The notes: a model not told the origin generated them from the letters alone. DNA of 64,000 nucleotides from Candidatus Bathyarchaeota archaeon (GCA_963706285.1 CAVPLU010000010.1:32001-96000), one strand, 5' to 3'; shown: positions 408 to 23,244, numbered from the stretch's first letter. Numbers and translations are program-made.

Positions 408-416
408 CTCAGGCTG

Positions 417-1679: not shown

Positions 1680-1867
1680 GGACTGTAGCCTTCAAGTGAC
1701 TTGCAGCATGTGAATAGTGATGACTGCTGTAGTTGCATTACGAAATGAGGAAGGTTCATTTGAAGTTTGACCACACAATGTAAGAGTGTGACGAGTTCAC
1801 GAGGTAGTTGTCTTACGCCCATAAACAATGCTGGACGAGGTCTCTCGAGAATTCCCTAACATGGAAG

Positions 1868-2831: not shown

Positions 2832-2876
2832 GCTGAAAGCGAATGCCATGAACAGCGGGGGCATACATGGAAACAT

Positions 2877-4151: not shown

Positions 4152-4331
4152 TCCGCATCACAGTTCCTGCAGTTAAGAAGATTGCGAGCCCTGCAGGATC
4201 AGATGATGCCTCACATACAGCTGATAATCACATGGTTGCGGACCAGCCCACCGAGTCGAGCTTGTGACTTGGAGACGCGCTTATTACGCTAAGCAATCTA
4301 CATTTCTAAATGGAACACGAGGAAAGAGCGT

Positions 4332-4907
4332 ATGCTCCAACAGCAATTGCAGACACGCCCTCTGTCTCAAAGTAGAGAGATTGCCACACTCGCCGGCGGA
4401 TGCTTCTGGTGTCTGGAAGCAGTATACGACGAACTCAAAGGAGTTGAAGACGTGGTTTCAGGCTACGCCGGAGGCAGAATGCCGAATCCATCCTACGAAA
4501 TGGTCTGCACAGGAACGACCGGCCACGCTGAGGTTGTACAGATCACTTTCGATCCAGAGATCATATCATTCAAAGAAATTCTCGAAGTATTCTTCACAAT
4601 CCATGATCCGACAACACTGAATCGTCAAGGCTCCGACGTAGGAACACAATACCGCTCCGCCATATTCTACCACACTCCAGAACAGAAAGTGACTGCTGAG
4701 CAAGTGATCGCGGAACTTAACTCGGAGCACATCTGGGACGGCCCAATCATCACCGAGTTGAAGCCGTTCGAGGAATTCTATCCCGCAGAAGCCCACCATC
4801 AAGAGTACTTCAAGAAGAATCCCAATCAGTCATATTGTCGCGTCGTGATCGCGCCGAAAGTCACCAAGTTCCGCAAACAGTTTCTGGACAAACTAAGAAA
4901 GACATGA
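4332..4907 (+). CDS. msrA: peptide-methionine (S)-S-oxide reductase
   Basis: GGCFWC, SGYAGG, GTQYRS and AEAHHQEY motifs. Confidence 0.95.
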
Positions 4908-5027
4908 TCAAAAGTTGCCAGCCTGCCCTAGGAAGTCAGACTTTCGCCGGGGGCACCCTCTCAAGAAGAGGGCTCAGCACGATAGCTTCCTGTTCAGGCA
5001 GATTTGCCTAAGAATTCAACAGCGCAT

Positions 5028-5858
5028 TCATAATCGCGTGGGCTTTCCCGGATTGCCACGGGACATGTAGAAGTCGACAAACCCTGTCTTCATCAGGAAA
5101 GGTGCCAGGAGTATCAGGAGCGCCACGATGCCGACCGTTATGATTGAAGAAGCGAAGATCGGAGACATCGCGCTTCGATTGAGGGCAATTCCTATCGAGG
5201 CCCAGATTACGACAAGTCCGAAGGCGAAGTCTCTACGAGTCAATACCATGAAGCTACTGATCAATAGAGCGATTACAATTACCATGCCCGTCCAGAGCGC
5301 TTGTGTCGGCTCTGGGATACCGGGGAATAGAACGTTCAACACTGATGCTATGTTGGCAATGATGGCAAGCGAGATCCATCCGAGATAGACGCTGATCGAT
5401 AGATGCACAGCTAGCTTGATGTTTCGAGGCGCTTCCCTCCTTCCAATACCCAAGCGCTGGTAGATCGAAAGCAAGCAGAGGAGGAGGACCGCGATCGGCA
5501 CTAATGAAAAAACGAAGAGCTGCGGCAAACCGTACGAGTAGTGGAAGACGAGTAGCCAAGATATGTTAGCGACAGCACCAAAAAGGTACAGGAAACCTAT
5601 CTGCGCCAGGTAGCTTTCCTTACGTTGGCTGGGCCTGACCTGATAGACCATGAAGACGATTCCCAGAACGTAGATGACCCCCCAGATGGAGAATACGTAT
5701 CCTGGAGGCGTGAACAGGTTAGGATACGAGTCGGAGACCTGACCTGTTGTCACTCCATTGAATGGAAGAACGTTAGCTAACATATTCACTACAAGCGCAG
5801 AGGCAACCGCAGCCACATTCGCCATTTGATAGGTTAGCGAATTGGCACTCGTTGCCAT
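5028..5858 (-). CDS. TspO/MBR-related tryptophan-rich membrane protein
   Basis: VSDSYPNLFTPPGYVFSIWGVIY and SVYLGWISLA motifs; start placed at MATSANS, not the ORF-track start at 6344. Confidence 0.75.
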   Translation of the reverse strand: MATSANSLTYQMANVAAVASALVVNMLANVLPFNGVTTGQVSDSYPNLFTPPGYVFSIWGVIYVLGIVFMVYQVRPSQRKESYLAQIGFLYLFGAVANISWLLVFHYSYGLPQLFVFSLVPIAVLLLCLLSIYQRLGIGRREAPRNIKLAVHLSISVYLGWISLAIIANIASVLNVLFPGIPEPTQALWTGMVIVIALLISSFMVLTRRDFAFGLVVIWASIGIALNRSAMSPIFASSIITVGIVALLILLAPFLMKTGFVDFYMSRGNPGKPTRL

Positions 5859-5875
5859 TAGTGCTGACTTCCCTG

Positions 5876-6259
5876 TTACTTGAACTCCTTTTCTTCCCAC
5901 ATGTCGTAGGCAGTGGCTGTGGACGATGCTTGAGCAATCATGGCTAGTGCAACAACTAGATGGAGAACGGTGATCGCCCAATGAATTGTTCCTTCCGTAA
6001 ATACATAGAGGGGAATGCCGATGACCCCATTCAACCCCGCCATGGCTGGAATGGCTTTTGATATTCGCTTCACACGGTTCGGCGCAGAGGTCTTCATAAT
6101 TTCGCGATAGTTCATGATTGCCAAGACTAGAACTGCAAGCCCGACCACGGAATGAAGGTATAGGACACCGAATATTTCCGAAAATGCAGTTACAAAGAAC
6201 TGAATGAAAGCAAGCCAGATCAGAAGGTAAAGACGCGCCCACAACTTCAACGCGTTCAC
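5876..6259 (-). CDS. hypothetical 4-TM membrane protein
   Basis: 127 aa, four hydrophobic segments with intramembrane His, co-oriented with the downstream gene. Confidence 0.65.
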   Translation of the reverse strand: MNALKLWARLYLLIWLAFIQFFVTAFSEIFGVLYLHSVVGLAVLVLAIMNYREIMKTSAPNRVKRISKAIPAMAGLNGVIGIPLYVFTEGTIHWAITVLHLVVALAMIAQASSTATAYDMWEEKEFK

Positions 6260-6525
6260 CAGATGACGAGTCTACCTGTGACACCATAAGGCTTTGCATA
6301 CGGTGACGTGGTGGTCGGTCAATTCGCGTCCTAGTGGTCGTCAATAGGTTCTGACCTTCCTCGATCTGTATTGTTGGATCTGAGTGTGCACACGCAAGAC
6401 TGACGAAACCAAGGGACGACGGTGCATGACAACCCAGGGAGATATCCTAGCCTATTCTTGTCAGGATGGGGATTTGCGTCAGTCTTATTTCCATCCTATC
6501 CACGAGCGTTACTGGTGTGATTGTG

Positions 6526-7044
6526 TTGCCTTTCTGCCCGAAATGCGGCGCGGAATTACCTGCTGATGCAACATTCTGTATGAAATGCGGTAGACAGATG
6601 ACTGCTACGTCAGCAGTCGAAGAGCGAAGATATTCGAGAAGAGAGAAACGCGAGAAAGATGAGAAGCAAGAGAAGGACGAGAAGCGCGAGAAGGATGAGA
6701 AGTCAGGCGACAGGACTGGAGTCTTTGTTGGCGGTCTTATCCTGATATGGTTCGGTATCTCGTTCTATCTTGTGCAGGCACAATACATTGGCTGGAATGA
6801 ATGGTGGCCATATCTGCTCGCAGGAATCGGAGTGATTCTAATCGCTCAAGCAGCCGTGCGATACTCAACTGTGCATCGCAAAGGCCCGGTGATGGGCCCC
6901 TTGATCGGAGGCTTAGTTTTGCTGATGATCGGTCTCGCAAGCATAATGGGGATGAAGGATTGGTGGCCGTTTGTTCTAATCGCGATAGGCATAGTGGTGA
7001 TAATCGGCGGCGCGACAGCAAGAGCGCGGACGCCAAGAGCCTAA
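6526..7044 (+). CDS. zinc-ribbon protein with EK-rich linker and LiaF-like TM region
   Basis: FCPKCG..FCMKCG, EKREKDEK repeats, four TMs with WWP motifs. Confidence 0.8.
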   Translation: MPFCPKCGAELPADATFCMKCGRQMTATSAVEERRYSRREKREKDEKQEKDEKREKDEKSGDRTGVFVGGLILIWFGISFYLVQAQYIGWNEWWPYLLAGIGVILIAQAAVRYSTVHRKGPVMGPLIGGLVLLMIGLASIMGMKDWWPFVLIAIGIVVIIGGATARARTPRA

Positions 7045-8177
7045 ATGAACCATCGCGTGATTGCCCGATACAACACGTGCTCAGCGGTCGTGCGGAATCT
7101 AGCACGACCGAAGATCCTGAAGTACTGACCGCCCAAGCATTCAACCATATCGCCTATGTCGTACCTCGGCAACAGACAGGATGAAATGAGGAGTCTTCCC
7201 CACTCACCTCTTCTCATCTCATACAGCATCTTGACGCCATCTCCAGTGATTACTTCAAAGAAGTATGCGTCATAGTTGGGCGAAACGTAAGGCAGATCGT
7301 CTAGTTGCTGAGCGAAGACTCCCTCTGTTGCTGTGTACATCTCCACGACAGGCGCTTGACCATAGAAATACTGTAGAACAGGAGCATACTTCCAGTGTAT
7401 CTTCGGAACACTGGTGCAAAAGAACGCGCCGATCTTCCAGAACTCCTTAGGAAGCTTGTGGTGTTTGCGTTTCACATACCTGGCGAATGAGGTGATGATT
7501 GGCGCGACACCCATGCAGACTCTAACATCTTCGTCTTTGGCGAGCTGGTAAGCTAGCTCGAACCTTTCCTCCCAGGCCTTCTTCGTGACGCTGCTGCCAA
7601 GTGCGTCAATTTTCTCTTGAGGAGGAACAAGATTCGTTCCTGCAAAAGCTGGATTCAATCTTGCGTAGGTTCCCGAACTGAAGCCACATGTTTCAGCTCC
7701 GCTGGTGGCTGGCATCGATCGCGTGCGCGAAGGGAAGTTAAGGTTGAGGACTTTGCCCTGGAGAATATCGAATCTCCCAGTTCTAAGAACATGGTTTACT
7801 ATTGCACGTGCTCCGCAAGAGAGAATCTGATTCAGATGCTTGCTCGTGACGGGAAGGATTTTCGGTAGATCGGTGGTTCCTCTTGTCATAACCCAGGCTG
7901 CCGGTGGTTCAGGCAGCAACGCTTTGAAATCGCCTTCAGTCACTTTGGCTATGATAGGTTGGAAGTCAACATAGCTACTCGGCTGGAACACGCTCCGATA
8001 TTCATCAATAGAAAGAGAAGAGGCGACTTTGAGATTCTTACCATACTCGGTACTGCTGTAGTCCTTGAGAAGACTCTGCAGCGTTCTCTGTTGAGCTTCA
8101 GCTGGGTCGCGTAGTGAGTCATGCCATGGCTTCACTACGGCTTTCAGAGATTCTACCGCTGAAATATTCAGAGACAT
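7041..8177 (-). CDS. GH3 acyl-acid amido synthetase family protein
   Basis: TRGTT..PKILP, EMYTATEG and LPRYDIGDMV motifs. Confidence 0.8.
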   Translation of the reverse strand: MSLNISAVESLKAVVKPWHDSLRDPAEAQQRTLQSLLKDYSSTEYGKNLKVASSLSIDEYRSVFQPSSYVDFQPIIAKVTEGDFKALLPEPPAAWVMTRGTTDLPKILPVTSKHLNQILSCGARAIVNHVLRTGRFDILQGKVLNLNFPSRTRSMPATSGAETCGFSSGTYARLNPAFAGTNLVPPQEKIDALGSSVTKKAWEERFELAYQLAKDEDVRVCMGVAPIITSFARYVKRKHHKLPKEFWKIGAFFCTSVPKIHWKYAPVLQYFYGQAPVVEMYTATEGVFAQQLDDLPYVSPNYDAYFFEVITGDGVKMLYEMRRGEWGRLLISSCLLPRYDIGDMVECLGGQYFRIFGRARFRTTAEHVLYRAITRWFI

Positions 8178-8708
8178 CCAAGATCATCCGAAGGTTGGTC
8201 CCCAAGGGTTAACTTGGTTCTTCTTAACTCTTGATCACTTACAAACCAACCATCTTGCGCGTGACCGTCGTTCAATCTATCTCAGATGTGGTTTGGTCAG
8301 TAACATTAGTGACTGACTGAAGCTATATCGAGAATTCGATGACTCCTGAACGCGCAGCAATGAACTGTAGAACATCACTCGTGCCCAATGCCTGGATTCG
8401 AGAATATGACCTGTCTTGGTGCAGCACTGTAACGGGTTTCATGCGAAGACTAAGAACCTCACACCTTAACTATGAGCCAGAGAATAGGAAAATTGGAGAA
8501 TGGAGACGACTTCATGGAAGAGTACTATAGAAACAGCGAAGGCCACTACCAACCTAAGAAAACCACCAAACGAAAAACCAAGAAACTCAACCGGTAATTT
8601 TGTGCCTCTTGGTATCCTGCAATAATTCTGTGCGGGGCTAGTACGCACAAGCGCCAGCAAAACTAAATGGAATCTCTCCCAGCGATGCTTTGATGGAGCT
8701 GCATCAAG

Positions 8709-9368
8709 ATGAGATTCACGCACCTGACCTTCGATTGCTACGGGACACTAATAGACTGGAGAAAGGGAATCGAAATCAATCTCGGCGAACTTCTCCGAAG
8801 GCACGGTCTCAAATCAGGCGTAAGCGTCCATCCTCTCTATCTGAAGTTCGAGGCCGAAGAAGAAGGCCAATACAAGTCTTACAGAGAAGTCCTAAGAAAC
8901 ACAGCAATCAAGGTCGCGGAACATCTCAATCTCTCAATTACACAAAAGGAAGCGGAAATTTTCGCGGCCAGTGTCCCCTCCTGGCCTCCGTTCAGCGACA
9001 CAGTTCGAAGCCTGAAGGAATTGGGAAAGATTGGATACAAGCGAGTCATACTCTCAAATATTGACGAGGAAACATTGAAGGCGACGATTCATCAAAACCG
9101 TTTGGAAGTTGATGGCTACATCACTGCTGAAGATGTTGGGTCGTACAAACCCGCGTTTGGACACTGGAACAGATTCTATGAGGTCTACAAGGTTAGCAAA
9201 GAGCGAACTCTTCACGTGGCCCAGAGCATATATCACGACATCATTCCATGCAGTAAGCTCGCCATCTCTACAGCATGGATCAACAGATATTCTGAAGCGA
9301 CCCCACCGGGAATCAACCCAACATATGTCTTCAGCGATCTCAGGAGTCTATTGACACTTCCAAGTTAG
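8709..9368 (+). CDS. HAD superfamily hydrolase (haloacid dehalogenase type II-like)
   Basis: FDCYGTLIDW, LSN, GSYKP and HVAQSIYHDI motifs. Confidence 0.9.
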   Translation: MRFTHLTFDCYGTLIDWRKGIEINLGELLRRHGLKSGVSVHPLYLKFEAEEEGQYKSYREVLRNTAIKVAEHLNLSITQKEAEIFAASVPSWPPFSDTVRSLKELGKIGYKRVILSNIDEETLKATIHQNRLEVDGYITAEDVGSYKPAFGHWNRFYEVYKVSKERTLHVAQSIYHDIIPCSKLAISTAWINRYSEATPPGINPTYVFSDLRSLLTLPS

Positions 9369-9397
9369 AGTATTCGCGTGCCGCATTCGCACACGAC

Positions 9398-9925
9398 TCA
9401 AGAATGTCCTTTCGGCAGAATCTTCGGTTCTTTCCAATCTTCTTTAAGTATACTGTAGAGAGCCGTGTCTCTCCATACACCACGGCTGAAGAATGACTTG
9501 CGCAGTATGCCCTCCTTACTGAATCCCACTTTTTCTAGCACTCTCGAGGAAGCCTCGTTTTGCGGATGAATCTCGGCCTGAATCCGAACAATGTCTTTGT
9601 TGAGAAACAAGTAATCCACCATAAGCTGAACTGATTCACTACCGTATCCTTTGCCTCTCTCGTCAGGAACAAGCATGTACCCTACTGCAATGCATCCCTT
9701 CACGTTGAAGTGTGCAATGTAACCTATCTTCGTCCCATCCTTTTTCTCAACGAAGAACCATTGTCCTCCTGCCAAGTTGTCGTACTGTCTCTCAAGGTCT
9801 GCCAAAGTCTCCTGAGAAATAGGTTCGAATTCGCCCACGAAATGTAAATCGTTCACCCAACGCTTCAGCACCGGCAGTTCCCCTTTCTCAACAAGATTCA
9901 AGTTCACTTTCCTTCCCTCCAACAA
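9398..9925 (-). CDS. GNAT acetyltransferase, RimJ/RimL family
   Basis: ERGKGYG and NEASSRVLEKVGFSKEG motifs. Confidence 0.85.
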   Translation of the reverse strand: MLEGRKVNLNLVEKGELPVLKRWVNDLHFVGEFEPISQETLADLERQYDNLAGGQWFFVEKKDGTKIGYIAHFNVKGCIAVGYMLVPDERGKGYGSESVQLMVDYLFLNKDIVRIQAEIHPQNEASSRVLEKVGFSKEGILRKSFFSRGVWRDTALYSILKEDWKEPKILPKGHS

Positions 9926-10063
9926 TGGGATTCAATCCTCCTCGGTGCCATACCTGATTCGATCTGTTTTTGCACTTCACCTGCTCACATATAGCTAGTC
10001 CTTCACTCGTGTTCCTGATTCCGCTACGTCGCAAGAGCAGAAATTTCTAGCAATCGATCCTTG

Positions 10064-11155
10064 CTACTTCACGATAGTGACGATATCGCGGTCCTGAACG
10101 ACATGATCCACTCCGACACGCTGAGGGCTGAATCTTACACTCTTTCCGGAAACCAATGCGTACTTCGCTTCGCCCGCGAAGTTCCTATGGATCTTCTGAC
10201 AAACATCGGAAATCGTTGAACCCGCTGTCACTATCAGGGGCTCTTCAAAATCGGCAGGACCGTTCCGTGGCTTGAGGTAGATCTTGATCAATCTCAGCCG
10301 CTGATAGATTGCTACCTTCACCTTGTCCAGGTTGACGTCTCTATCTGCGGAGATTGGAATCAGATCTTCACTCACTCGCTTCTTAGCCTCAGCGACGTAC
10401 TTTGGGCTTACCAGATCAGTCTTATTCAAAACAGTGACCGATGGAATATATCGACGATTTCCGGCGATCAGGTCGATGAGTTGATCGTCGGTGATATCCT
10501 CCCTAATGATCACGCTACCTTGATTGATCTTGTATGTGTTCAATATTCCTCGAATAGTAGATTCGGACAAGTGGGTGAGCTTGCAGGTCGTTGTTATGCC
10601 AAGCCCGCCTTGAGAGGTTCGGTTGATGGTGACATTCGGAGGTCGAGTGTCGAGTCGGATTCCCATTTCGTATAGTTCGTTCTTCAACACGCTGATTTGA
10701 TCGGGTTGAAAAACATCCAGAACCAAGAGTATCAGATCGGCGTTCTTTGCGACGGATAACACTCTCTTGCCTCTGCCGGTGCCGGTTGCTGCTCCTGAGA
10801 TGATGCCGGGAAGGTCAAGGATTTGTATCCTAGCTCCTTGGTACTCAAGTAAGCCGGGAACAACCGTTAGCGTCGTGAAAGCGTATGCGGCGACTTTTGA
10901 TTTGGCGTTTGTTAGCCTGTTTAGGATTGTTGATTTTCCCACACTTGGCAGACCGATCAGTACGGCGGTGCAGTCGCCGCCTTTCTTCAGCTCGAAGCCT
11001 GCTCCGCCTTGTCTAGATCCTTGCGAACGCTCTTGTTCACCCTTCAGTTTTGCAATTTTGGCTTTGAGCAGACCAATATGGTGTTCAGTGTGCTTGTTGA
11101 TCTGTGTTCTTTTCATCTCCTCCTCTATTGCCCGTATCTTCTCTGGTAACCCCAT
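10064..11155 (-). CDS. DRG/Rbg-family OBG GTPase with TGS domain
   Basis: NKHTEHHIGLLKAK, GLPSVGKS, DLPG and NKTD motifs, C-terminal TGS. Confidence 0.92.
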   Translation of the reverse strand: MGLPEKIRAIEEEMKRTQINKHTEHHIGLLKAKIAKLKGEQERSQGSRQGGAGFELKKGGDCTAVLIGLPSVGKSTILNRLTNAKSKVAAYAFTTLTVVPGLLEYQGARIQILDLPGIISGAATGTGRGKRVLSVAKNADLILLVLDVFQPDQISVLKNELYEMGIRLDTRPPNVTINRTSQGGLGITTTCKLTHLSESTIRGILNTYKINQGSVIIREDITDDQLIDLIAGNRRYIPSVTVLNKTDLVSPKYVAEAKKRVSEDLIPISADRDVNLDKVKVAIYQRLRLIKIYLKPRNGPADFEEPLIVTAGSTISDVCQKIHRNFAGEAKYALVSGKSVRFSPQRVGVDHVVQDRDIVTIVK

Positions 11156-11566
11156 TCGCGTCTGCTCCAGGCAAAGGCGATAGAGATATCGGCAATAAAC
11201 CGAACGGTAGAACACGAAAGCTGGGAACAGAAGCCGTCATTTGGCCTTGCAAGGTAAACCAAGGAGTCACTCTTTGTTCGGTGCTTGATACACATCAAAA
11301 GAAATCGAGGCGACGGCGTGGTCAAGTATCTCTCAGTCATCCAAGCGTCGTTTCGCGGAAAAACGTGTCACAGGAGAAGCATCGCTTGGTACTCTAATTC
11401 TCATGCTCAGCCTCTTGGCATCAGTTGTCCGACATTTCTGCAGACAAATGTAAAGAATTCCGGAAATTAGTATCTATTTAGCATATATGGTCACACATAA
11501 AGAAAATACTATTTGCGAAGTTTCTTATAGTTTCCACACACTCTCGGTAGGTTTTGTGACCTCACC

Positions 11567-13341
11567 TTGACTTCTACCACTTCAGCCCTTGAGACAAAGT
11601 GGAATATGCCATTCATAACATTCGCTGCCTCTCTGGGCACGATGATTGATTGGTATGACTTTTACATTTTTGGTTCCTTGAGTGTTCTGCTATCTACCAA
11701 GTTCTTTCCACCGGGAGACCCTGTCATCGCGTTCTTGTCGACTCTGGCAGTCTTCGCAACGGGTTTTGCCGTAAGGCCTTTCGGAGCAGTCGTCTTCGGA
11801 AGGATCGGAGATCTCGTCGGAAGAAAGTACACGTTCCTGCTGACGATAGGCATCATGGGAACGGGAACAACAGCAATCGGCTTTCTACCCACGTACGAAG
11901 CAATAGGTATCTTCGCACCTCTGATACTGGTTCTTCTTCGACTTCTGCAGGGACTTGCACTAGGCGGAGAATATGGAGGGGCCGTGATCTACGTTGCGGA
12001 ACACTCCCCCGACGAGAAGAGAGGCTACTGGACCAGTTACATTCAAACAACTGCCACGTTCGGACTCTTTCTCTCATTAATGGTGATCCTTGGCACGAGG
12101 GGCCTTGTAGGAAATACCGTTTTCAATGACTGGGGCTGGAGAATACCATTCGCCCTATCAATCGTGCTAGTCGCGATGTCGCTTCTGATAAGATGGAGTC
12201 TAAGTGAAACTCCCCTGTTCAAACGCCTCAAGCAACAGGGCAGCCTTTCCAAAAGCCCAACTCGAGACAGCCTCGGCAACAAAAGAAACTGGAAACTCAT
12301 CCTACTAGCGTTGTTCGGAGCGACGGCGGGTCAAGGAGTAGTATGGTACACCGGGCAATTCTATGCGCTGTTCTTCCTGCAGACAGTCCTGAAGGTAGGT
12401 ATTGACATGTCGAGTATCATAGTCGCGGTGGCTTTGGCCGCGGGAGCCCCATTCTTCGTACTCTTCGGCTGGCTCTCTGACAAGATAGGTAGAAAACGAA
12501 TTCTTCTGGCCGGCAATCTGTTGGCAGTGATAACATACTTCCCAATCTACTACGCGATGCATGCTTTCTCGAACCCACCAAACTTTGCAGTCCTAACAGT
12601 CCTCGTTTGGGTTCAGGTGATATACGTCACAATGGTATACGGACCCATAGCAGCGTTCCTAGTGGAATTCTTCCCAGCGAAAATCAGATACACCTCTCTC
12701 TCAGTTCCCTATCACTTGGGAAACGGTGAGTTCGGCGGATTCCTCCCTCTCATAGCATCAACGATCGTCGTTGCTACAGGCAACATCTACGCGGGACTGG
12801 CCTACCCAATCGCCGTATCCGCAATGACCCTCATTGTAGGCGGGTTTTTCCTCAAAGAGACTCGGCACATCAAGATCTGGGATGAAGTCCGAGCTCCAAT
12901 GCCCATCGCAGTGCCAACCAAGAGAATCTCAAGAATTCTGATCCCAGTTGACGGATCAATAAACTCGGAAAGAGCTCTCGACTACGCAATATTCCTGGCG
13001 AAGAAATGCGAAGCGTCCTGGAAGCTGTCCACGTATGTCATGCTCCCCCACTTCCCACTTCAGATAAGGAGAGGGATTCCTTCCTTAGAATGCTCGACCG
13101 TGACGCAGACGCGATCTTGGATAAAGCGCAGAATCGAGCCAAGGAAGAAGGAGTTGTGATTGAAAAGCTCAAGGAAGTGGGTCACCCTGCAACTCGCATA
13201 CTGGAAGTCGCGAGCTCTCGCGAGCCCAGCCTCATAGTCATGGGAAGCCGAGGGATGAGCGGCTTCAAGGAGGCCGTTCTGGGGAGCGTAAGTCACAAAG
13301 TAAGCGAAGATGCCAAATGCCCAGTACTCATAGTACGCTAA
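11567..13341 (+). CDS. MHS-family MFS transporter fused to C-terminal universal stress protein domain (frameshift near 13015)
   Basis: DWYDFY and GLALGGEYGG; ILIPVDGS begins in the MFS frame and VMGSRG..LGSVS..CPVLIVR continues in ORF 13006-13341. Confidence 0.85.
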
Positions 13342-13716
13342 ACATCGACATGCTTTGAACCATATCCAGTGGATGCAATGGGTTAGTGCGAAGAGACTCT
13401 TGTAGGCATTACAGCTTCTCTCCGCTCTGAGACAAAAGCCAAGGTTACGGGTCCAGAACCGTGGATTCTCGACCTAACTAGACGACTCAAGTCGAATGAC
13501 AAGTAACGATTCCTGCCGTTGCGACCCTCGCAGTCATTTCTTGCCTCTGAAACAAACGCTCACGTGCGACTACCATCCAGATACTCGCGACATGTCTCGC
13601 TTCTTGTTGCGTGTTGTCAACGGTTTGAAAGAAGGCAACATCTATACATTCGGGCAGCATGACTCATCCTGAGATCTCCGAATCGAAACTGAGCATTGGG
13701 AGGCATTTGCGCAGAA

Positions 13717-14514
13717 ATGAGCCTAATCGGTAAGTCGATCCGACTAGAGCGGATAATGAACCGCAAGAACAGGAGGACAGTCATCGTTCCGATGGATCAT
13801 GGAGTCTCAGTTGGTCCAATCAAAGGCCTCGCCAACCTGAACGAAGTTGTTGACAAGGTTGCGGAGGGAGGCGCGAATGCTGTCCTCGGCCACAGAGGCT
13901 TACCCATGTACGGCCACAGACGATACGGTAGAGACATCGGACTGATCCTGCATCTCTCAGGTAGCTCCATGCTCAACCCGGACCCTAACAACAAGGTTCA
14001 GGTAATGACGGTTGAAGAAGCATTAGTGATGGGCGCGGATGCAGTGAGCGTCCACATAAACATTGGAGCAGACAATGAATCTGAAATGCTCAAGTCTCTA
14101 GGCACTGTTTCAAGGGACTGCGTGCGATGGGGCGTACCGCTCGTCGCCATGATGTACCCTCGAGGCAAGAAAGTCAAATCGGAGCACGATTTGGAGGCTG
14201 TGAAACTTGCGGCGCGGATCGGCGCCGAACTTGGAGCCGACATCGTCAAAACAAACTACACCGGCACCGTTGACAGCTTCAGAGAGGTCGTTAAGGGATG
14301 TCTAGCCCCAGTGATTGTCGCCGGAGGACCAAGAATGGAAACCAGCAAAGACGTGTTACAACTAATCTGGGAAGCCGTCGAAGCCGGAGGAGCAGGCGCC
14401 TCAATAGGTAGAAACGTCTTCCAAGCTCCTGATCCCACAAAAATGGTTAGAGCGATATCGCGAATCGTCCACGAAGGATACACTGTGGACGAAGCAATGA
14501 AAGAAATCGCTTGA
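13717..14514 (+). CDS. aroA': 2-amino-3,7-dideoxy-D-threo-hept-6-ulosonate synthase
   Basis: Class I aldolase motifs [20 protein letters not shown] and GRNVFQ; adjacent to DHQ synthase II. Confidence 0.9.
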
Positions 14515-14611
14515 GTAGTCAACCCTTGGACAATGTCAAGTTATTGACCGCATCGGCAAGCCTCACATGGTGTACAACAATTCCACTCGCCACAACAGCA
14601 GTGATCTCACG

Positions 14612-15612
14612 ATGATAGTGAAAGAAGTCTGGCTGCAATCAGAAACCGATCTCGAAGAGAACTCCGCCAGAGATCGACAATGTGATTGTGAAGGACAAGA
14701 CTAGAGATGGCAGGCGCGTGGTCAGACACAATATCCTAGAGGAACTCAAGCATGATCAGAAACTCATTCCTTGGATAACGATAGAATCTATGGGCGATGT
14801 GAATCTTGCCGCGAAGGCAGCCGAGCTAGGTGCAAAGGACATCATATTGTCAGGCAAGAACAACGCTTTCCCCGTAGGCATCGCTCTGGAGAAAGTAATT
14901 GCGGAGACCCAGAGATTCGGAACGAATCTGCATGCAAGCGTGAAGTCATTTGAAGAAATGCTAGCAGCTTCCCGAACATTGGATGTTGGAGTCAGCCTCG
15001 TGGTTAACGATGCCTCATTAGCTAGAATGTTCAAGGACTATTTTGCTCCGATGAAATTCGATCTAATCGCGACGCCGGTGAAGTCCGTGGATAGAGTTGG
15101 CGCCTGCTGGAGATCCTGCATCGACACAGGAGATATCATGAGCGTCGGCGAAGGAATGCTCGTAGGATCGACCTCCAGCGCATACTTTCTGGTTCATGCG
15201 GAAGTTCATCGGAACTGAGTATACTGGAAAAAGGGAATGGCGCTGCAACGCAGGCCCAGTATCGAACTACATCATCATCGACAAGCCCGCTGGGGCCGGA
15301 ATCAAGACGAAATATCTAAGCGAACTCAAATGCGGAGACAGCGTTCTCACCGTAGACAAAAACGGGAACGCTAGAAGAACAGTCGTAAACAGAAACAAGA
15401 TAGAGTACCGCCCCGCAGTCAAAATAACCACGGAAGTCGAGGGAAAGAGATACTCGGTGCTGCTGCAGGGCGAGAAGAGTATCCATCTCACCACGAAGGA
15501 TGGTAAGTGTGTCTCTGTTCTAGACAGCCTAGGCCAGGACGTCCTAATGTATCACACAAAAGGCGGAATGCATTTCGGAACCAAAGTTGAAGAAGGCATC
15601 TTCGAATACTAG
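14612..15612 (+). CDS. aroB': 3-dehydroquinate synthase II (frameshifts near 14660 and 15210)
   Basis: RSCIDT..GEGMLVGS..FLVHAE, NAGPV, KYLSEL, KIEYRP and GMHFGTKVEE across adjacent ORFs. Confidence 0.85.
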
Positions 15613-15678
15613 ACTAGTGCAGCACACTGTATCATAGAGCCTTCAGCAACACACACCTCATATGGGTCCCCTCGTTCT

Positions 15679-16254
15679 CTATCGCTTTTTGCCCTTCGCG
15701 GACTTCTTCGAGAAACCATGTATGCCTATTCTTTTGTGAAGATCCCAATATTCGCCCTGATTGTAAACGAATGGAGATACTTTCTTGAAATCGATTCGTC
15801 CCTTCTTGTCAAGCACCTTCTTGTCAACGTGAACACGGACGATCTTGCCAAGGAACAGATCGTGACTCCCTAACAAAATCTTCTCGCTAAGAAGACACTC
15901 CATATTCACCGGGCACTCTTTGATTAGCGGAGGTTTGACTTTCTGAGCACGTTCCGGTGTGAGCCCTGCTTCGGAGAATTTGTTCACATCTCTACCTGAG
16001 ACGAGCCCGCAGAAGTCCACCGCGCGAAGCATTTCCTTTGTTGGAATATTCACAACGAACTCTGCAGACCCTTCGATTAGACTGTACGATTGCCTCTCGG
16101 GCCTGATGCCTAACCCGATCATGGGTGGTACAGAACAGACTACCCCTGACCATGCCAAGCTGATTATGTCGGGCTTTCCGTCCGGACCCACGCAAGTGAC
16201 AAGAACGACCGGGCAAGGGAATAGAGCGGCCCACGGGGCCTTTTTCAATTTCAT
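15679..16254 (-). CDS. flavin reductase family protein (flavoredoxin-like)
   Basis: PCPVVLV, EFVVNIP, SGRDVNKF and GSHDLFLG motifs. Confidence 0.88.
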   Translation of the reverse strand: MKLKKAPWAALFPCPVVLVTCVGPDGKPDIISLAWSGVVCSVPPMIGLGIRPERQSYSLIEGSAEFVVNIPTKEMLRAVDFCGLVSGRDVNKFSEAGLTPERAQKVKPPLIKECPVNMECLLSEKILLGSHDLFLGKIVRVHVDKKVLDKKGRIDFKKVSPFVYNQGEYWDLHKRIGIHGFSKKSAKGKKR

Positions 16255-16478
16255 GAACGAACGCTGTGTAATACCTCTACTTGATCTTTACCTGCACATT
16301 CGTTCCAAGATTCGCGGCAAAACTGCCGGTTCTGGCGAGTTTGTCTCTGGATCTGGGTCTCTTGGTGCGCATCACCACCCCGGTTCTCAGGTCCTCTAAC
16401 ATTTATCGACTAGGAGAAGCGGCGATTCTCGCGTTCGCTCCTCCATGGGATGCTTAGAATGTTTCGCGGGGTGGTTGT

Positions 16479-16997
16479 GTGCTTAAGGGTACACATCTGA
16501 GAAGGGTGAATGCTTATTGGCGGTGCTCTGTTCGCGTGTCAGTTCTCATCATAGCGCATCTTGAGCGGATTGCTGTTAGGGAGCATTGGATGCTGTCAGA
16601 TCTGGCTAGGATGCTGATCTGCCTAGGCGCGGCTGGCACCTATCTGAGATTGGGAGATCCGGAAGTCTCGGACAGGTTCAAGACGTTGGCGAGCTTGGGT
16701 GGAGCACTCACCGCATTAGATACAACTTTGGGTCGAGTGAGTCGTCGCCATCACGCCTCTCGTGGGCTGGCTAGATCAGAATTGTTAGCTCTACGCCTAC
16801 CAACGGGTCTCACAAGCCTCATCACCACATATGCGAGGACTAGTGGGAGATCACGAAACGAAGCCTTGACGATGTTTCTGGAGCGCGGCTTAATCATCTA
16901 CCTGAAAGCAGAAAAGATACTACTAGAAACAATCCAATCAGTCGAAGCCGAGTCCGTCAAGAGAATGAAACCAGATGAAGCAGTCGCTGGTGTATGA
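16479..16997 (+). CDS. hypothetical protein with ribbon-helix-helix-like segment
   Basis: LALRLPTGLTSLITTYARTSGRSRNEALTMFLERGL fits the CopG/Arc RHH pattern; start uncertain. Confidence 0.5.
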   Translation: MLKGTHLRRVNAYWRCSVRVSVLIIAHLERIAVREHWMLSDLARMLICLGAAGTYLRLGDPEVSDRFKTLASLGGALTALDTTLGRVSRRHHASRGLARSELLALRLPTGLTSLITTYARTSGRSRNEALTMFLERGLIIYLKAEKILLETIQSVEAESVKRMKPDEAVAGV

Positions 16998-17459
16998 TTT
17001 GCAGGAGCCGTTCCGTTGGATAGCGGATGTTACTGTGATGGAAGCGTTCGAGTCCGGAGTGTTGGATTTGCCGGATTTCTATTTCACAGGTGACGATTAC
17101 AGGTACCGCTTTGAGCCTGAGGCTAGACAGCGATTCATCGATCTCATACGGACACGATTCAACACAGGCGTGAAGTACAAAGATCGAACTATGAAGCGGG
17201 ATACGGTCATCGAGAAGAAGGCAGTAGAGCTTGGCAGTCACCTTACAGGCAGCAACAGCAGGCTCGATTTTTCGGAACCTTCTCCCGATATGCATCGAGC
17301 AGACGATAAGGAGCTGCGGAGACGAATCCTCAGATCTATCTCGATCGAGACGCACGAACGCTTGGAATTGGAAGAAGCACCCTGCACTGCTTGAAACGTA
17401 GGGCGAATGAATCTCGTCCGTTCAAGATCTACAGGCCGGTTTGGAATATACTCGATTAA
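16975..17459 (+). pseudogene. cas1: Cas1-solo (casposase-type) C-terminal fragment with HTH
   Basis: KQSLVYDLQEPFRWIAD Cas1 motif; after a frameshift near 17340, ARTLGIGRSTLHCLKRRANESRPFKIY (HTH tail); N-terminal half absent. Confidence 0.85.
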
Positions 17460-18136
17460 TGGAGAAGAACCAAGTGAAGAGAAATCGCAAAAACGCATCT
17501 GCTCAAGGCAATGAGGACGAATAAAGCCACAGCATTAGTCGGACTCTGCTTCCGAGCACGATGTGGCGAAGATCTGTCTGGATTGACCAGAAACTATCAA
17601 GCGTCTGGCGGACGTCCGTGGTACATTCACGGTGTATCTGGCATATCTTCTTCAAAGGAGAATACATCAATGGAACGTCTAGAAGAATGTAACTTGCACA
17701 GCTGCGCAGAAATTGGTGCCAAAAACGCGCTGGAATGGCTCAGACGTACCAAAGGTCGAAAAGTATCTTGCGAGCTACGCAAGAGATCGCCAACCACAGA
17801 AGCAGCGCGACAGACGGTGCCGGCTAAACGTACGGATCTCGCCGTGAAGATCTGCATCAACTCATCAAGTGACTCGGCATTCGGCATACTGCTCGTAGCG
17901 TCAGTTCTATCGAACAGCGTTTGAACTCATAGCGAGCAAGGCAGGAAGCAAAACCGGGCTTGCGATACTTGACAAGAATCCGGTAAGACGGGACGGGAGA
18001 GATTCTACTTGAGCCGAAAGATCGTCGCGTGTGTATTGGACTCAGCGTCACGCTGCGAATCACTCGTTGGGTCACCCGACTTGCGGGGAGCAGGGATTTG
18101 AAACAAGGAGAACCGCTGGTGTGTGTACGAACTTGA

Positions 18137-18730
18137 TTGCAGGTAAACGGAATGTGGATCGGGAGCGGTCACTATTTGGACCTTAGGCTCGCTCATTGGC
18201 AGGTACAGGATGCTGAGAAGCTTGATCTTGCTGGACTCTCGGATGGTTTTCGCATTCGCGGTTTTCTTCATGCACTCGGAAGGATGGTCTATGACGTCGC
18301 ATACTCGATCGGATATCAATACGCCCTGGTACCCAGCAATTTCCTTTTCGACTGGGTGCATCGCGATTTGCTCTGTCTTATCTCCTGACATGGAGGTGGA
18401 TTGTCAGGGCATACCGAGACAAGTTCACGCGTTCTTTGCATGCTGACGGTGACCAGGATGAATCTGCCGTGGCAGATGTTGTCAAGGTCGCACACGGTAT
18501 CAAATCGAAGTGACTTCGTAGTTGGAATCATGCAGAACGTGGTCAACTCGAGCGAATTGCTGGTCTCTGTGGAACAATTTCCTTGGAAAGAAGATTCAAG
18601 ATTGGACGAACTAGTCAAGACCTTCTCAAACAACATCGCGGCAAGTATTCTACACTGGCGACGGCTATATCAGTCTCCGTCTCCATTATCACCCCAAGCA
18701 CCAATGCCGATCTGGAACAATCCAACGTAA
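18137..18730 (+). pseudogene. putative gene remnant with one in-frame TGA (18386-18388)
   Basis: ORFs 18137-18388 and 18401-18730 share a frame; no recognisable family. Confidence 0.25.
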
Positions 18731-18875
18731 AGTTCGTCAATCTTGTCCTAGAAATCGCAGCAGGCAAATATCTCTTTTAGGTCTTTGCCATCTAGGACGA
18801 TCATTCTGCGTTCTCCTTGCCAGGCTACCTTGACGGCCCCCAAGCACGCTGCAACCCATCCCCGGACAGGCGTTT

Positions 18876-19017
18876 TGTGTGTGGTACGCTTGGTGCGAGC
18901 ACCCGAATTTGAACCGTCGTGGTTGAGGTAGTGTGTGTGATACCCTTGGTGCGAGCATCGGAAATTGAACCCTTGATCGTCGTCGCCGCTCTTGGTGCGG
19001 TCATCCAAATTTGGACC
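18876..19017 (-). repeat. three degenerate direct repeats of a tRNA 3' end (25-bp core)
   Basis: TGGTGCGAGCACCCGAATTTGAACC (18891-18915), TGGTGCGAGCATCGGAAATTGAACC (18947-18971), TGGTGCGGTCATCCAAATTTGGACC (18993-19017); the first two also share an adjacent tgtgtgtgRtacSct. Confidence 0.75.
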
Positions 19018-19281
19018 GTCGTTCAGGCGTTGATTTTCAGTGCTTGCACGCACCAGTCAATGCAAACGCGACAACGAGTCGTTCATCTGGGTGGTGAGTG
19101 GAAATCCTCATTCTACTAGTCTGAGCTTTGAGTTCATACCAATACTGAGATTAACACCCGTGCTCCAATGCTGGCAATAGCTCTCTATCGCATGGAACAC
19201 ATCTTGCCAATGTCGCCCAGAAGTTTGTTAGGGATGGATGAAGGACTGACAGCGAGAGCCGCCATCGATGGGAGGTAGCCT

Positions 19282-20256
19282 ATGACACAGAGCGGTTCTA
19301 GAATAGCGGTCTTCGCGGCCATCATCGGCAACCTGATCATCGCGATCATCAAGTTCATTGCGGCGGCAATCACCGGCTCATCGGCCATGATTTCCGAGGG
19401 CATCCACTCGCTCGTCGATACGGGAAACGGTGTCCTCGTGCTGCTCGGAATGAACCGCGCCAAGCAGCCTGCCGATGAAACCCACCCGTTCGGCTACGGC
19501 AAGTCGCTCTACTTCTGGACGCACATCGTGGCGATCTCCATCTTCGGCATCGGTGGTGGCATGTCGCTGTACGAGGGCATCTCGCACATTCGCCACGTCG
19601 CACCGGACGCCGAGATGGGCGATCCCACGGCGGCCTACATCGTGCTCGCCATCTCGCTCCTGGTCGAGGGCGGATCATTCACGGTGGCCATCAAGCAGTT
19701 CCTGCAGGCCAAGGGCGATATGGGCGCCTGGCAGTTCATCAAGCAGTCGAAGGACCCGAGTCTCTACACGGTAGTGCTCGAGGACAGCGCGGCCATGCTC
19801 GGTCTCATCTTCGCGTTCCTCGGGATCTTCCTCGGCCACCTGTTCAACAATCCGTATCTCGACGGCGCAGCATCGATCGCAATCGGCCTGCTGCTGATGA
19901 GCGTGGCCGGGATCCTCGCGTCGCGGACCAAGGGTCTGCTGCTGGGCGAGGGCGTGAACCCCGACGAGCTCGCGGACATCCGGCGGCGCGTGGAGTCGGA
20001 TCCGGCGGTCGAGCGGGCCGGCGACATCCTCACCATGTACATGGGCCCGCACGATCTGCTCGTGAACATGGGGGTGTGCTTCGTTGCAGGTACCACGGCC
20101 GAGCAGATGCACGAGGCGATCCGCCGCATTGAAGCCGACCTGCGCAGCGCATACCCGGAGACCAACCGCGTCTACATCGAAGCCGAGTCGCTGCCGGTCG
20201 AGGAGACTGAGGGCTCTCTGAAAAAGCGTGAGGCTCGGTCATCTCAGATTGTGTGA
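19282..20256 (+). CDS. cation diffusion facilitator (CDF) family transporter
   Basis: SEGIHSLVD, HPFGYGK and VVLEDSAA motifs; GGAGGT Shine-Dalgarno at 19271-19276; high GC. Confidence 0.92.
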   Translation: MTQSGSRIAVFAAIIGNLIIAIIKFIAAAITGSSAMISEGIHSLVDTGNGVLVLLGMNRAKQPADETHPFGYGKSLYFWTHIVAISIFGIGGGMSLYEGISHIRHVAPDAEMGDPTAAYIVLAISLLVEGGSFTVAIKQFLQAKGDMGAWQFIKQSKDPSLYTVVLEDSAAMLGLIFAFLGIFLGHLFNNPYLDGAASIAIGLLLMSVAGILASRTKGLLLGEGVNPDELADIRRRVESDPAVERAGDILTMYMGPHDLLVNMGVCFVAGTTAEQMHEAIRRIEADLRSAYPETNRVYIEAESLPVEETEGSLKKREARSSQIV

Positions 20257-20540
20257 GGAATAGCCTAGCCTCATATGATTTCCATTTACAGTGCGTCGCT
20301 AGACTGATTGAATGAGATGTTTCTTCAATTTCCAAATTCAATAACGATATAGATGTAGAGGATTCTTCTACGCTTAGTTTTTTCACAAATCTATGTGCAG
20401 AAAGACAGGATTTGCGATTTCTAGTCTGTCTAATACTATTACACATATTTCTGGCGGAGAATTCTGCTTTCTAAGATAGTCTCTTCTGGCATCTAGGGGG
20501 CGCGTTTGGGAACAGAATTAGGAATTGTGTGTGAGTATGC

Positions 20541-20565
20541 TGGTGCGGGCGACCGGATTTGAACC
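20541..20565 (-). repeat. tRNA 3'-end fragment (att/TSD-like; Gly- or Leu-like acceptor)
   Basis: Minus strand GGTTCAAATCCGGTCGCCCGCACCA is T-loop, 3' acceptor strand and CCA; the tRNA 5' portion is absent. Confidence 0.8.
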
Positions 20566-20650
20566 ATAACGAATGGAGGAGCGTCATGCGTCTTCGCCGA
20601 AGTCTAGGTCCCGGACTAGGTGAAGCCGAGAAAGTGCAAGGCGTTCTGAA

Positions 20651-22192
20651 TTACCTAGCCAGTTCCACTAGGTCGCTCCAGACTTTAGCGGGCTTCCAGT
20701 TGTAGACGATTGTCTTCAGTCTCGTCATTTCTTCTATGCTGTATCCTATTCCTTCCCTACCGAGTCCAGAGTCTTTGTTTCCGCCGAAAGGATAGTAGCC
20801 GACGCCGTGGCGGGGAGCCGCGTTTATCGTTATCTCTCCTTCTTCAAGTCTCTTTGCGACTTTTCTCGCGAGGTTAAGGTTGAAAGTGAAGACACACGAA
20901 TCCAAGCCATACTTCGACTTGTTCGTCAGGTCAATCGCTTCATCTACATTCTTCACAGACATTATCGGGATTATGGGACCGAATGTTTCTTCCCACATGA
21001 TGTTCGCGTTTGTAGGAACTGGGTAGAGCACCGTTGGATAGTAGTAGTTACCTTCGAACTTCGCTCCTACAAGCGCCTTGGCGCCTTTGTCGATTGCATC
21101 AGTAACGAGGCCATGTACCCTTTCAACGGCGCCTGCGATTGATGAGTGGTCCAACTTTGACTGTGGGGTCGCGTGGGTCGCCAACCTTGTACGTTCCAGC
21201 CTCTTCCACGATCTTCTCAACAAACGTTTCTACAATATTATGCTCAACGAGGACTCGGCTTACTGCGTCACATCTCTGCCCGCTGTAGCTGAGAGCAGCC
21301 TTTCGCGATCTCTTTCACCGCAAGATCAAGGTCAGCGTCTCCGAGAACTATTGCGCATCCTTTCCCGCCCAATTCCATGTGCAGTTTCTTGATGCCTGCA
21401 ACTCGGGCCAGCCTCTTTCCGACTTCGGTGCTTCCCGTGAAACTGATCATGTCAATCTTCTCGCGGCCGGCTAGATACTCGCCGATTGGTCCCCTTCCTG
21501 TCACGACATTGAGTGTGCCCGCCGGAAGTCCAGCTTTTTCCAGAAGTCGAGCGAACATGAGAAAGGAGAGTGGATCTTGACTTGCTGGTTTCACAACGAC
21601 CGAATTTCCCGCGAGAAGTGCCGGGATCACTTTGGTTGAGGTAATGTAGAGTGGATAATTGAAAGGTGAAATCGCTAAGACGACCCCCAGCGGTTCTCTT
21701 AGTACGTCTGCGGAGGTACCTACGGTCTCGTCTGACCAATCGCCTGGGATGTGTTCTCCTCTGATCTTGCTGTAGTCCTCCGGGGTGAGCTTCAGGCGCT
21801 CGGCCGTGGATCTCACTTCACCCTTTGCATTAGCCAATGTCTTGCCTGCTTCCAGCGACAGAATATGGACAAAGGAGTCTTCGTTGTCGAGCAGCAACTC
21901 GCGCGTGCGCAAGGAAGATCTCGATCTTCTCGACTGCGGGGACGGTCCTGATGGCGTTTCTGTGAGTGTCTGATGACTCGACCGCTTGGTCCGCTTCTCG
22001 TTCTGAAGCGTTCGGGATGGTCGCAACTAGACCATTATCGATTGGACTCCGGACTTCGATACGTTGCTCCAGCGAGGTCCATTTTCCATCAACTAGCATT
22101 TTGAATTCCGGACAACCGGACGCCGCAAGTGAGTAGATTGGGTTGAAGATATCTCCGAGTTTGTTCGCTTTCGCAACTTCCGTCGTATGCAA
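20651..22192 (-). CDS. gapN: non-phosphorylating GAPDH / aldehyde dehydrogenase, GapN type (three frameshifts)
   Basis: ISPFNYP, FTGSTEVG, MELGGK, SYSGQRC, EETFGP and PFGGNKDSG across ORFs. Confidence 0.8.
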
Positions 22193-22317
22193 TTCCTCAT
22201 CGTACGGACGGTGGGTGGTCGATATAGGTGACTCCCTACAGCACATGCTCTCAAGGTTGAGCTCGGATCGGAAGTCAGCGACCTCCGAGAATCTTCCTGC
22301 CTCTCCCTGAGAGGTAT

Positions 22318-23244
22318 CTAGGCCTGGTGGTTGCTTCTCGATGATCCTGTCAGATAGACTCCGATGATGACGAGAGCTCCGCCGAGGAGTAGGAAGTATG
22401 TCATCTTCTCCCCGAGGAATAGGTAGGAGAGAATTGCTGTTGGTATTGGTATGGCGTACATTGCGACGAGGAGTTTAGTGATATCGATCTCTTTTATCGC
22501 GCGGTTCCAGAGCATGTAAGCGATCACGGAGCTCGGTATCGCTAGGTAGACGATGCTAAGCCACGTCATCCATGATGAATTCAGAACGAGGTTTGTGCGG
22601 CCTTCAACGAGCGCGAATGGAATCAAGTACAACGTGCCGAGCAGAAACACGCAAGACGTGGCAACGGCGCTGGAGTAACCATGGAGTATTCTCTTGCCGA
22701 GAATAGAATAGGCTGCCCAGCAGAAGGCAGCGGCAACCATAAGCAACACTCCAACTGGCTCAAACAAGTTCAGCGACACCGTTGAAGCGTTTCCTATCGT
22801 TATCACCGTGACTCCAACAAATGCTAGGAGGACACCAGCTGTCTTCCCTCGAGTGAGAGGTTCTCTGAGAAACAATGCAGAAAGTAGCATGGCGAATATG
22901 GCGTGGAGATTGATTATGATAGAGCCCTCTGTAGCTGAGATGAGTTGCAGCGAGTAGAACTGGAAAACGTAGAGAAGCGTGACGCCTGTCAGAGCGAGAG
23001 CTGAGAACTGCACAAAATCGCTGGTCAGAGCGATTCTCATTGCTTCTCTTGAGGATCGAGCGTATACGGTGGGTATGATCAGAATGGGGGCGGCTACTGC
23101 GAATCTTGCTAAAGCCAGCGTTACTGGTGGAATCTCCTCCAACGCTATCCTGATGAAGATGAACGACGCTGACCAGATGAATACGATCGAGCTAACTAGT
23201 GCGAATGAAACGAGGTTTCTGTTGGCCGACGTGTTTCTTCCCAT
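22318..23244 (-). CDS. EamA/DMT family transporter
   Basis: About 10 TMs in two EamA repeats (LFLREP, LFLGEK). Confidence 0.88.
   Translation of the reverse strand: MGRNTSANRNLVSFALVSSIVFIWSASFIFIRIALEEIPPVTLALARFAVAAPILIIPTVYARSSREAMRIALTSDFVQFSALALTGVTLLYVFQFYSLQLISATEGSIIINLHAIFAMLLSALFLREPLTRGKTAGVLLAFVGVTVITIGNASTVSLNLFEPVGVLLMVAAAFCWAAYSILGKRILHGYSSAVATSCVFLLGTLYLIPFALVEGRTNLVLNSSWMTWLSIVYLAIPSSVIAYMLWNRAIKEIDITKLLVAMYAIPIPTAILSYLFLGEKMTYFLLLGGALVIIGVYLTGSSRSNHQA

Follow-up and report, generated by a model that had tools for sequence, protein, structure and literature searches.

A truncated casposase beside a tandem ribbon–helix–helix gene in a Bathyarchaeota genome and its probable source in polymerase-less casposons

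In the genome of a Candidatus Bathyarchaeota archaeon, we found the 3′ part of a casposase gene running on from a tandem ribbon–helix–helix (RHH) gene. Very probably, to judge from the sequences, it is the 3′ casposase remnant of a casposon without a polymerase, left by a deletion that fused cas1 to the RHH gene, by the spread of that fusion and by decay. In the literature, a casposon is by definition a self-synthesizing transposon, and casposons have been proposed as ancestors of the CRISPR adaptation machinery. The copy described here adds one dead element, an example of decay in which 5′ truncation leaves the neighbouring regulator surviving; the main interest lies in the lineage from which it came and in the live RHH gene at its locus, rather than in the copy itself. 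The window, meaning the whole 64,000-nucleotide stretch analysed, is on contig C10 of an assembly (G000) of 21 contigs that is 89% complete with 7.5% contamination. The original prediction took a Bathyarchaeia host as probable, which is supported purely through relatives: all 19 genome loci with homologues of the fragment are titled Bathyarchaeia or Bathyarchaeota.

The Cas1 remnant, its affinity and its damage

The remnant is an open reading frame (ORF) of 139 amino acids at 16975..17394 on the plus strand, which opens with MKQSLVYDLQEPFRW. It matches the Pfam model PF01867 (Cas_Cas1) over profile positions 226-280 of 283 (E 2.3e-6; 27.4 bits, cut-off 22.3) and TIGR00287 over positions 230-323 of 327 (E 6.8e-9), the latter score being under the cut-off that TIGR00287 sets for whole proteins, which is to be expected of a fragment. 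These matches bear out the Cas1 motif that had been predicted in 16975-17459. A helix–turn–helix (HTH) tail had been predicted beyond a frameshift, and it too was recovered, at 17349..17459 on the plus strand in another frame (aligned part 17349-17435, stop 17457-17459). The open frame at 17310-17456 is identical to residues 367-395 of an intact homologue, P0003, at 16 of 29 positions (E 3e-9) and also aligns with residues 366-397 of a second one, P0009; the tail by itself has no match in the PDB at E ≤ 10. Window positions 16972-17346 encode residues ~241-365 of a ~405-amino-acid casposase, and remnant and tail together account for residues ~241-400, with one +2 frameshift break.

Pfam and NCBIfam label the fragment merely Cas1, and databases call its relatives 'CRISPR-associated protein Cas1'. 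Such labels favour descent from a CRISPR–Cas locus, since lost, of whose CRISPR-associated Cas1 this would be the remnant; we regard that origin as extremely improbable in view of structure, phylogeny and gene content. A PDB search with the fragment returned 6OPM as the sole meaningful match (E 1.7e-18) and no CRISPR Cas1 at E ≤ 1. 6OPM is the family-2 casposase of Methanosarcina mazei, according to PMC6977970. The intact relative P0009 (405 amino acids) aligns with 6OPM over residues 6-402, the C-terminal HTH included (E 5.7e-77, 262.5 bits), whereas its best CRISPR Cas1 structure, 4N06 from Archaeoglobus fulgidus, scores 86.8 bits, ~175 bits lower. CRISPR Cas1 and the casposase have in common the Cas1 fold and the Asp-bearing DLxEPFR motif; by contrast, CRISPR Cas1 has no HTH, and the sequence described here has no Cas2 partner and no array. 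A C-terminal HTH is typical of family-2 casposon Cas1, and the tail of the window copy matches this HTH through P0003 and, by way of P0009, the C terminus of 6OPM, as had been proposed.

In a 22-row maximum-likelihood tree, the fragment falls within a clade (support 95/99) with four intact Bathyarchaeia proteins of ~405 amino acids. A 100/100 branch sets the 15 casposase-type rows apart from seven Cas1 genes of 272-379 amino acids from the same order, of which all five that were checked have a Cas2 neighbour. The tree was built without reference casposases of families 1-5, and the family-2 link comes from 6OPM and the HTH. Homologues of the fragment number 521 at E ≤ 0.001; the best 120 of the 521 align with 74-99% of the fragment at 63-78% identity and are mostly 390-430 amino acids long, and one of them bears an NCBI Bathyarchaeia label. 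Together, these comparisons indicate that the fragment is a casposase-type, not a CRISPR-type, Cas1, in agreement with the original prediction.

Gene content points the same way. Cas2 had no match in the assembly, under a control that gave matches in 6 reference genomes, and no CRISPR-like array was found among the 25 tandem-repeat rows of the window. Family B polymerase (PolB) is absent from contig C10; the protein-primed PolB model PF03175 had no match, but its control likewise gave none. The predicted lack of cas2, array and polB thus stood in the assembly, the window and contig C10, respectively. A search of the genome for an intact paralogue with a family B polymerase and terminal inverted repeats (TIRs), which the original prediction had envisaged, came back empty.

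The predicted loss of the N-terminal half, with its Glu and His region, was seen twice over: a six-frame reading upstream of the remnant gave no Cas1 N-terminal half, and tblastn with P0009 against the whole assembly gave nothing ahead of residue 213/214. This tblastn found six casposase pieces in the genome and zero intact genes, and matches to the Pfam Cas1 model across the assembly were confined to positions 222-280. The pieces include residues 214-259 at C10:248702-248837, residues 247-270 at C21:6415-6488 (at the contig end) and an HTH tail alone, residues 351-396, at C4:293563-293700. An intact copy could sit in the missing part of the 89%-complete assembly. The remnant begins at residue ~241, past the LEGECR (Glu) and GFLHE (His) motifs of intact homologues, and retains the Asp motif VYDLQEPFRW. 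LEGECR, GFLHE and YDLQEPFRW are called catalytic here by analogy with residues E141, H208 and D221, which PMC9939771 gives as catalytic in Escherichia coli Cas1. The window copy thus lacks the N-terminal domain and the full set of Glu, His and Asp motifs, the Asp motif alone being left. Without this domain or the motifs that carry Glu and His, the remnant would be unable to integrate DNA, and we class it as non-functional.

The frameshift lies at 17345..17352 on the plus strand, where a DNA alignment finds 2 extra bases relative to a paralogue on contig C9 and to the intact genes of two other genome loci, L007 and L009. Four public runs give essentially no coverage of 17136-17600, a single run reaching trace depth at 17180-17267. 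The core gene for 3-dehydroquinate synthase II, 2 kb upstream, is split as well, so the casposase frameshift may be an assembly indel. In the 22-row tree, the terminal branch of the fragment measures 0.36, compared with 0.08-0.18 in its four intact clade-mates, and this lengthening is consistent with relaxed constraint. As far as its sequence tells, the window copy is a dead, 5′-truncated, frameshifted casposase relic.

Two local features accompany these breaks. A perfect 12-nucleotide palindrome, TCTCGATCGAGA, occupies 17340-17351, and the casposase frameshift is in or beside it. The 3-dehydroquinate synthase II gene (14682-15612) consists of two overlapping ORFs that cover Pfam positions 61-216 and 217-343, and its split point is a near-tandem duplication of 11-12 nucleotides at 15192-15214; the core gene may truly be frameshifted there, or the assembly may carry an indel.

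The tandem ribbon–helix–helix gene and its junction with cas1

The tandem-RHH gene occupies 16479..16997 on the plus strand and is 172 codons long here; the upstream part of the repeated module to which it belongs covers 16393..16478 on the same strand. Homology of ~94% with a copy on contig C14 begins at ~16392-16393 (the blastn alignment begins at 16372), and one metagenome contig also diverges ahead of 16393. An AlphaFold model of the ORF has two strand–helix–helix units in one chain (pLDDT 82.8). Its top fold matches in Foldseek were F-relaxosome chains, which we take to be TraY (probability 1.0, E 5e-3), along with VirC2 and single-chain Arc; the likeness to these proteins is in fold, through weak matches, none of them at E ≤ 0.001, and the Pfam Arc model matches the ORF at E 0.085. 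The native stop codon, TAA in the copies on C14 and C9, is CCA here (16968-16970), so that the frame reads on through 9 more codons, into the cas1 remnant. This loss of the stop accounts for the overlap between the RHH ORF and the break that the original prediction had pointed out, which amounts to 23 nucleotides from the ATG of the fragment.

The module and its junction with cas1 recur in the genome. Window ~16392-17051 recurs at C14:88924-89602 (94% identity) and 16470-17389 at C9:1-933 (84%). The RHH frame is open in all three copies, with dN/dS of 0.04-0.23 over the two domains, and the gene appears to be alive and under selection. The cas1 part is damaged in each copy: by the frameshift on C10, by three or more shifts and stops on C9 and by a cut after 27 codons on C14. 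At this locus, the live RHH gene has taken over. The junction falls at the same nucleotide, in cas1 codon ~241, in the C10, C14 and C9 copies. Contigs from three runs belonging to three studies bridge it with at least 38 nucleotides on each side; it is therefore not an assembly chimera and is present in related populations. The public runs included no RNA run and none that matched half of the query words.

Past the junction, identity to the window copy is 93-100% for 55 nucleotides (C14) or 165 nucleotides (C9) and then collapses. Beyond ~17140, the cas1 parts of C10 and C9 have their best matches in other genomes and not in each other. As these parts are not nearest relatives there, one deletion with plain duplication afterwards would not suffice, and recombination is needed. 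In the history that we favour, a polymerase-less casposon would have inserted at a reusable target, and a deletion would have cut out the sequence that ran from the 3′ end of a tandem-RHH gene, lying upstream, to cas1 codon ~240. The junction so formed between RHH gene and truncated cas1 would then have spread to C14 and C9 by recombination or duplication, in a conserved stretch of cas1; the RHH gene would have stayed under selection and the cas1 pieces would have decayed independently.

A different history, in which an RHH cassette inserts site-specifically in the conserved QTKQSLVYDL-coding stretch of casposase genes and hit three casposases independently, would suit a junction that falls on one and the same nucleotide in all three copies despite the divergence of their cas1 parts. 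It would also suit the synonymous divergence between C10 and C9, which is 17.5 of 33.8 sites in the first 54 cas1 codons (the last ~4 of which are misaligned after an indel in C9), as against 10 of 52 and 7 of 55 in the RHH gene. Yet no N-terminal casposase half was found across any copy or elsewhere in the assembly, and high identity for 55-165 nucleotides past the junction followed by a drop is the pattern of a recombination tract. Of the order's 105 genomes, 17 have RHH homologues, and these stand beside casposase sequence in none of the 23 loci of other genomes, with ~1.5 kb of flank each. We therefore consider independent cassette insertions highly unlikely and prefer a single deletion with later spread by recombination.

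Intact relatives and known casposons

Relatives of the fragment are encoded at the 19 Bathyarchaeia or Bathyarchaeota loci, seven of them at full length, with the protein of L007 covering residues 22-398. Among eight full-length or near-full-length loci examined for ends, four elements of 4.9-11 kb were delimited. The L012 element (8496-15640; 7.15 kb) has a TIR of 50 nucleotides at 92% identity and a perfect 15-bp target-site duplication (TSD). The L013 element (14-4911; 4.9 kb) has a perfect 17-nucleotide TIR and a TSD that agrees at 10 of the 10 bases available at the contig end. The L025 element (6902-17865; 11 kb) has a 16-nucleotide TIR and a perfect 14-bp TSD, and the L007 element (390-9059; 8.7 kb) has a perfect 14-bp TSD and a weak terminal match only (local-alignment score 33), so that TIRs are present in three of the four. 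Local alignment gave no TIR partners for L009-L011, and L008 has no downstream motif to anchor a terminus. The TSDs of the delimited elements consist of CGCACCA plus 7-8 bases and abut a motif resembling a tRNA 3′ end, GGTTCAAATT-N-GCYCGCACCA. After the TSD, the element ends are of at least three types, CACACACA, CCGCCGCC and CCCCCC; the CCG-type end accompanies the more divergent casposases (L012, L013 and L025).

A scan of 30 ORFs in or beside the four delimited elements found neither PolB nor HNH, and a comparison of 40 ORFs of ~100 amino acids and up with Pfam, again in or beside elements, gave no HNH family. The largest interior ORF of the four elements is at most 487 amino acids. The single PolB met, at L010 (3549-6158), is 3.8 kb upstream of cas1 and, with the terminus predicted at ~9090, falls 2.9 kb outside the element. 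When ORFs were clustered across loci, Cas1 was the sole widely common family, and neither the casposase nor the RHH gene had a conserved partner gene in the loci compared. Upstream neighbours of cas1 are winged-helix regulators, and downstream neighbours vary among a DNA methylase, a TIR-domain protein, a weak VRR-NUC match and unknowns. The right end of the window relic, at 18876-18915, bears the same signature of terminus, TSD and motif as the delimited relatives, and the lack of PolB and HNH in these relatives suggests that the window relic came from a polymerase-less casposon lineage. Thus, of the predicted casposon relic, the casposon origin held up, and the canonical self-synthesizing type did not.

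Of the order's 105 genomes, 48 contain matches to P0009 (138 rows); 122 rows are at least 40% identical, 18 of them full length and 104 partial. Of these 104, 55 extend to residue 385 or further, 76 begin at or past residue 200 and 5 lie within residues 1-200. Their start points are scattered over residues ~100-365 with no fixed breakpoint. Some of the 23 tail-only matches are small HTH genes in their own right that neighbour an intact cas1 (for example, L009 11764-12042); such genes make up part of the tail-only excess, and the rest is a bias towards 5′ truncation. If the truncated casposase, with its Asp motif, helical domain and HTH, were a retained functional gene, which might inhibit incoming casposons in a dominant-negative way or repress them and be co-expressed with the RHH gene, the stop of which overlaps the casposase ATG, this C-terminal bias across the order would be in its favour, as would the fragments that are stop-free ORFs (such as a 169-amino-acid frame in L051) and the recurrence of the junction, seen at three loci of this genome and in metagenome contigs of three studies. 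The damage to all three genome copies, the lengthened terminal branch of the fragment, the variation of breakpoints across genomes and the small HTH genes among the tail-only matches all count against retention, and we give it very little chance. Decay of the cas1 pieces beside a maintained RHH gene remains our preferred reading.

The gene splitting that accompanies integration of SSV-integrase-like genes was also considered as a source of partial genes and set aside: the assembly holds no N-terminal halves, and the breakpoints spread over residues ~100-365.

The stop-free frame of 169 codons in L051 (3229-3741), from a genome of the same genus (G029), covers casposase residues ~240-403 at 40% identity to P0009 and is another truncation near residue 240, in a divergent casposase lineage. 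It sits between ORFs that, named by eye, resemble an enoyl-CoA hydratase and a peroxiredoxin.

The elements of Bathyarchaeia resemble family-2 casposons, such as those of M. mazei (MetMaz) and Aciduliprofundum boonei (AciBoo-C1), in the fused C-terminal HTH and the full-length match of P0009 to 6OPM. They also resemble them in having TIRs and a 14-15-bp TSD that starts with 5′-CGCA after a tRNA-3′-like sequence: the M. mazei casposon target is described as a 14-bp TSD starting with 5′-CGCA at the end of a tRNA-Leu gene, with ~30 bp of upstream tRNA sequence needed (PMC6977970). A tandem pile-up of insertions at one site is a further likeness, tandem casposon insertions being known in Methanosarcina (PMC6563490). 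By contrast, Cas1, PolB, HNH and two HTH proteins are given as the universal genes of family 2 (PMC9939771), and the four delimited elements here have neither PolB nor HNH; the target motif here has no detectable tRNA gene and ~45 sites in the genome; and the window copy is a truncated, frameshifted relic. A proposed 'family 5' of casposases from hot-spring metagenomes is described as mostly without a neighbouring PolB and with variable hypothetical cargo, and its authors propose non-self-replicating transposons (PMC9755687). The elements described here are like family 5 in both respects but differ in that family 5, by the same description, has no HTH and stands beside subtype I-A Cas1, whereas ours have a family-2 HTH and a family-2-like target.

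We found no description of Bathyarchaeia casposons in the literature, and the supplements of surveys (for example, PMC9755687 and PMC9966878) may list some. There is about an even chance, in our estimation, that these elements form an undescribed, widespread and recently mobile lineage of polymerase-less Bathyarchaeia casposons that retains the family-2 casposase, its HTH and the CGCA target, and in which the fusion of RHH gene and truncated cas1 spreads by recombination and displaces working casposases. If this is true, casposase-only transposition would be the norm in a Bathyarchaeia lineage, and 'self-synthesis' would not be required. A lineage with casposases of family-2 type, present in 48 of the order's 105 genomes, that transposes with perfect TSDs and no PolB would show that an integrase and its ends suffice as a mobile unit. 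A mobile unit of integrase plus ends would be nearer to the state of Cas1 plus a repeat that is imagined for CRISPR origins.

Ends of the relic, target sites and neighbourhood

The right-hand end of the relic is on the minus strand. Read from 18915 to 18876, it consists of a leader motif resembling a tRNA 3′ end, GGTTCAAATTCGGGTGCT (18898..18915), just upstream of the insertion point; a 14-bp TSD-type site, CGCACCAAGCGTAC (18884..18897), which starts with 5′-CGCA like the TSDs of M. mazei casposons; and the element terminus CACACACA (18876..18883), the commonest end type of this casposon lineage. In this order of motif, TSD and CACACACA, it is a right-hand element end that faces the cas1 remnant. 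On the left, a possible TSD copy, GGTCTCTTGGTGCG (16356..16369, strand unassigned), has 11 of 14 bases in common with the right copy at 18884-18897 and is followed by a degenerate CA-rich terminus at 16370; this left end is tentative, and the search for a TIR partner for the relic gave weak pairs only. If the left end holds, the relic would be ~2.5 kb long. The rest of it, 17460..18875, has no recognisable gene: the ORFs at 17511-17924 (+), 18005-18391 (−) and 18401-18730 (+) match no Pfam family significantly and lack relatives at the other loci. The relic is flanked by a flavin reductase gene (15679-16254, minus strand) on one side and, on the other, by a repeat array and then a cation-efflux gene (19282-20256). 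The unit at 18876-18915 is the first of three in tandem, spaced by 56 and 46 nucleotides; the other two, each with leader, TSD and short end, cover 18928..19026 on the minus strand. A further unit of leader, TSD and CACACACA lies beyond the cation-efflux gene (20522..20569, minus strand) and suggests a neighbouring relic cassette.

Units of this kind, each made of the 18-nucleotide motif resembling a tRNA 3′ end, a 14-nucleotide CGCACCA-N7 site and a short end of CACACACA type, are found throughout the genome, where ~45 motif sites stand alone or in rows of two or three (for example, C9:3991-4146 and C16:58001-58110). Over this assembly and the 19 loci, 12 tandem rows have spacings of 46-87 nucleotides. 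Units in one row are no more alike than units of different rows, and it is the whole motif that is repeated, not the 14-bp TSD alone. The 40-nucleotide repeats were also considered as tRNAs and rejected as such: ARAGORN found no tRNA in the window, and Rfam had no match there at gathering score or at E ≤ 1. Run with introns allowed on the whole genome, ARAGORN made 26 calls, none of them at motif sites except a true tRNA-Ala 3′ end at C4:162402.

The cation-efflux (CDF) transporter gene at 19282-20256 lies between the end units at 19026 and 20522 and may be cargo of the neighbouring relic rather than a resident host gene. From the further end unit onwards, window 20527-22848 is 93% identical to C3:43462-41146, in reverse orientation; this duplicate starts at a casposon end unit, includes a C-terminal piece of an aldehyde dehydrogenase gene (20651-21223, minus strand) and resembles a duplicated cassette with casposon ends as its borders.
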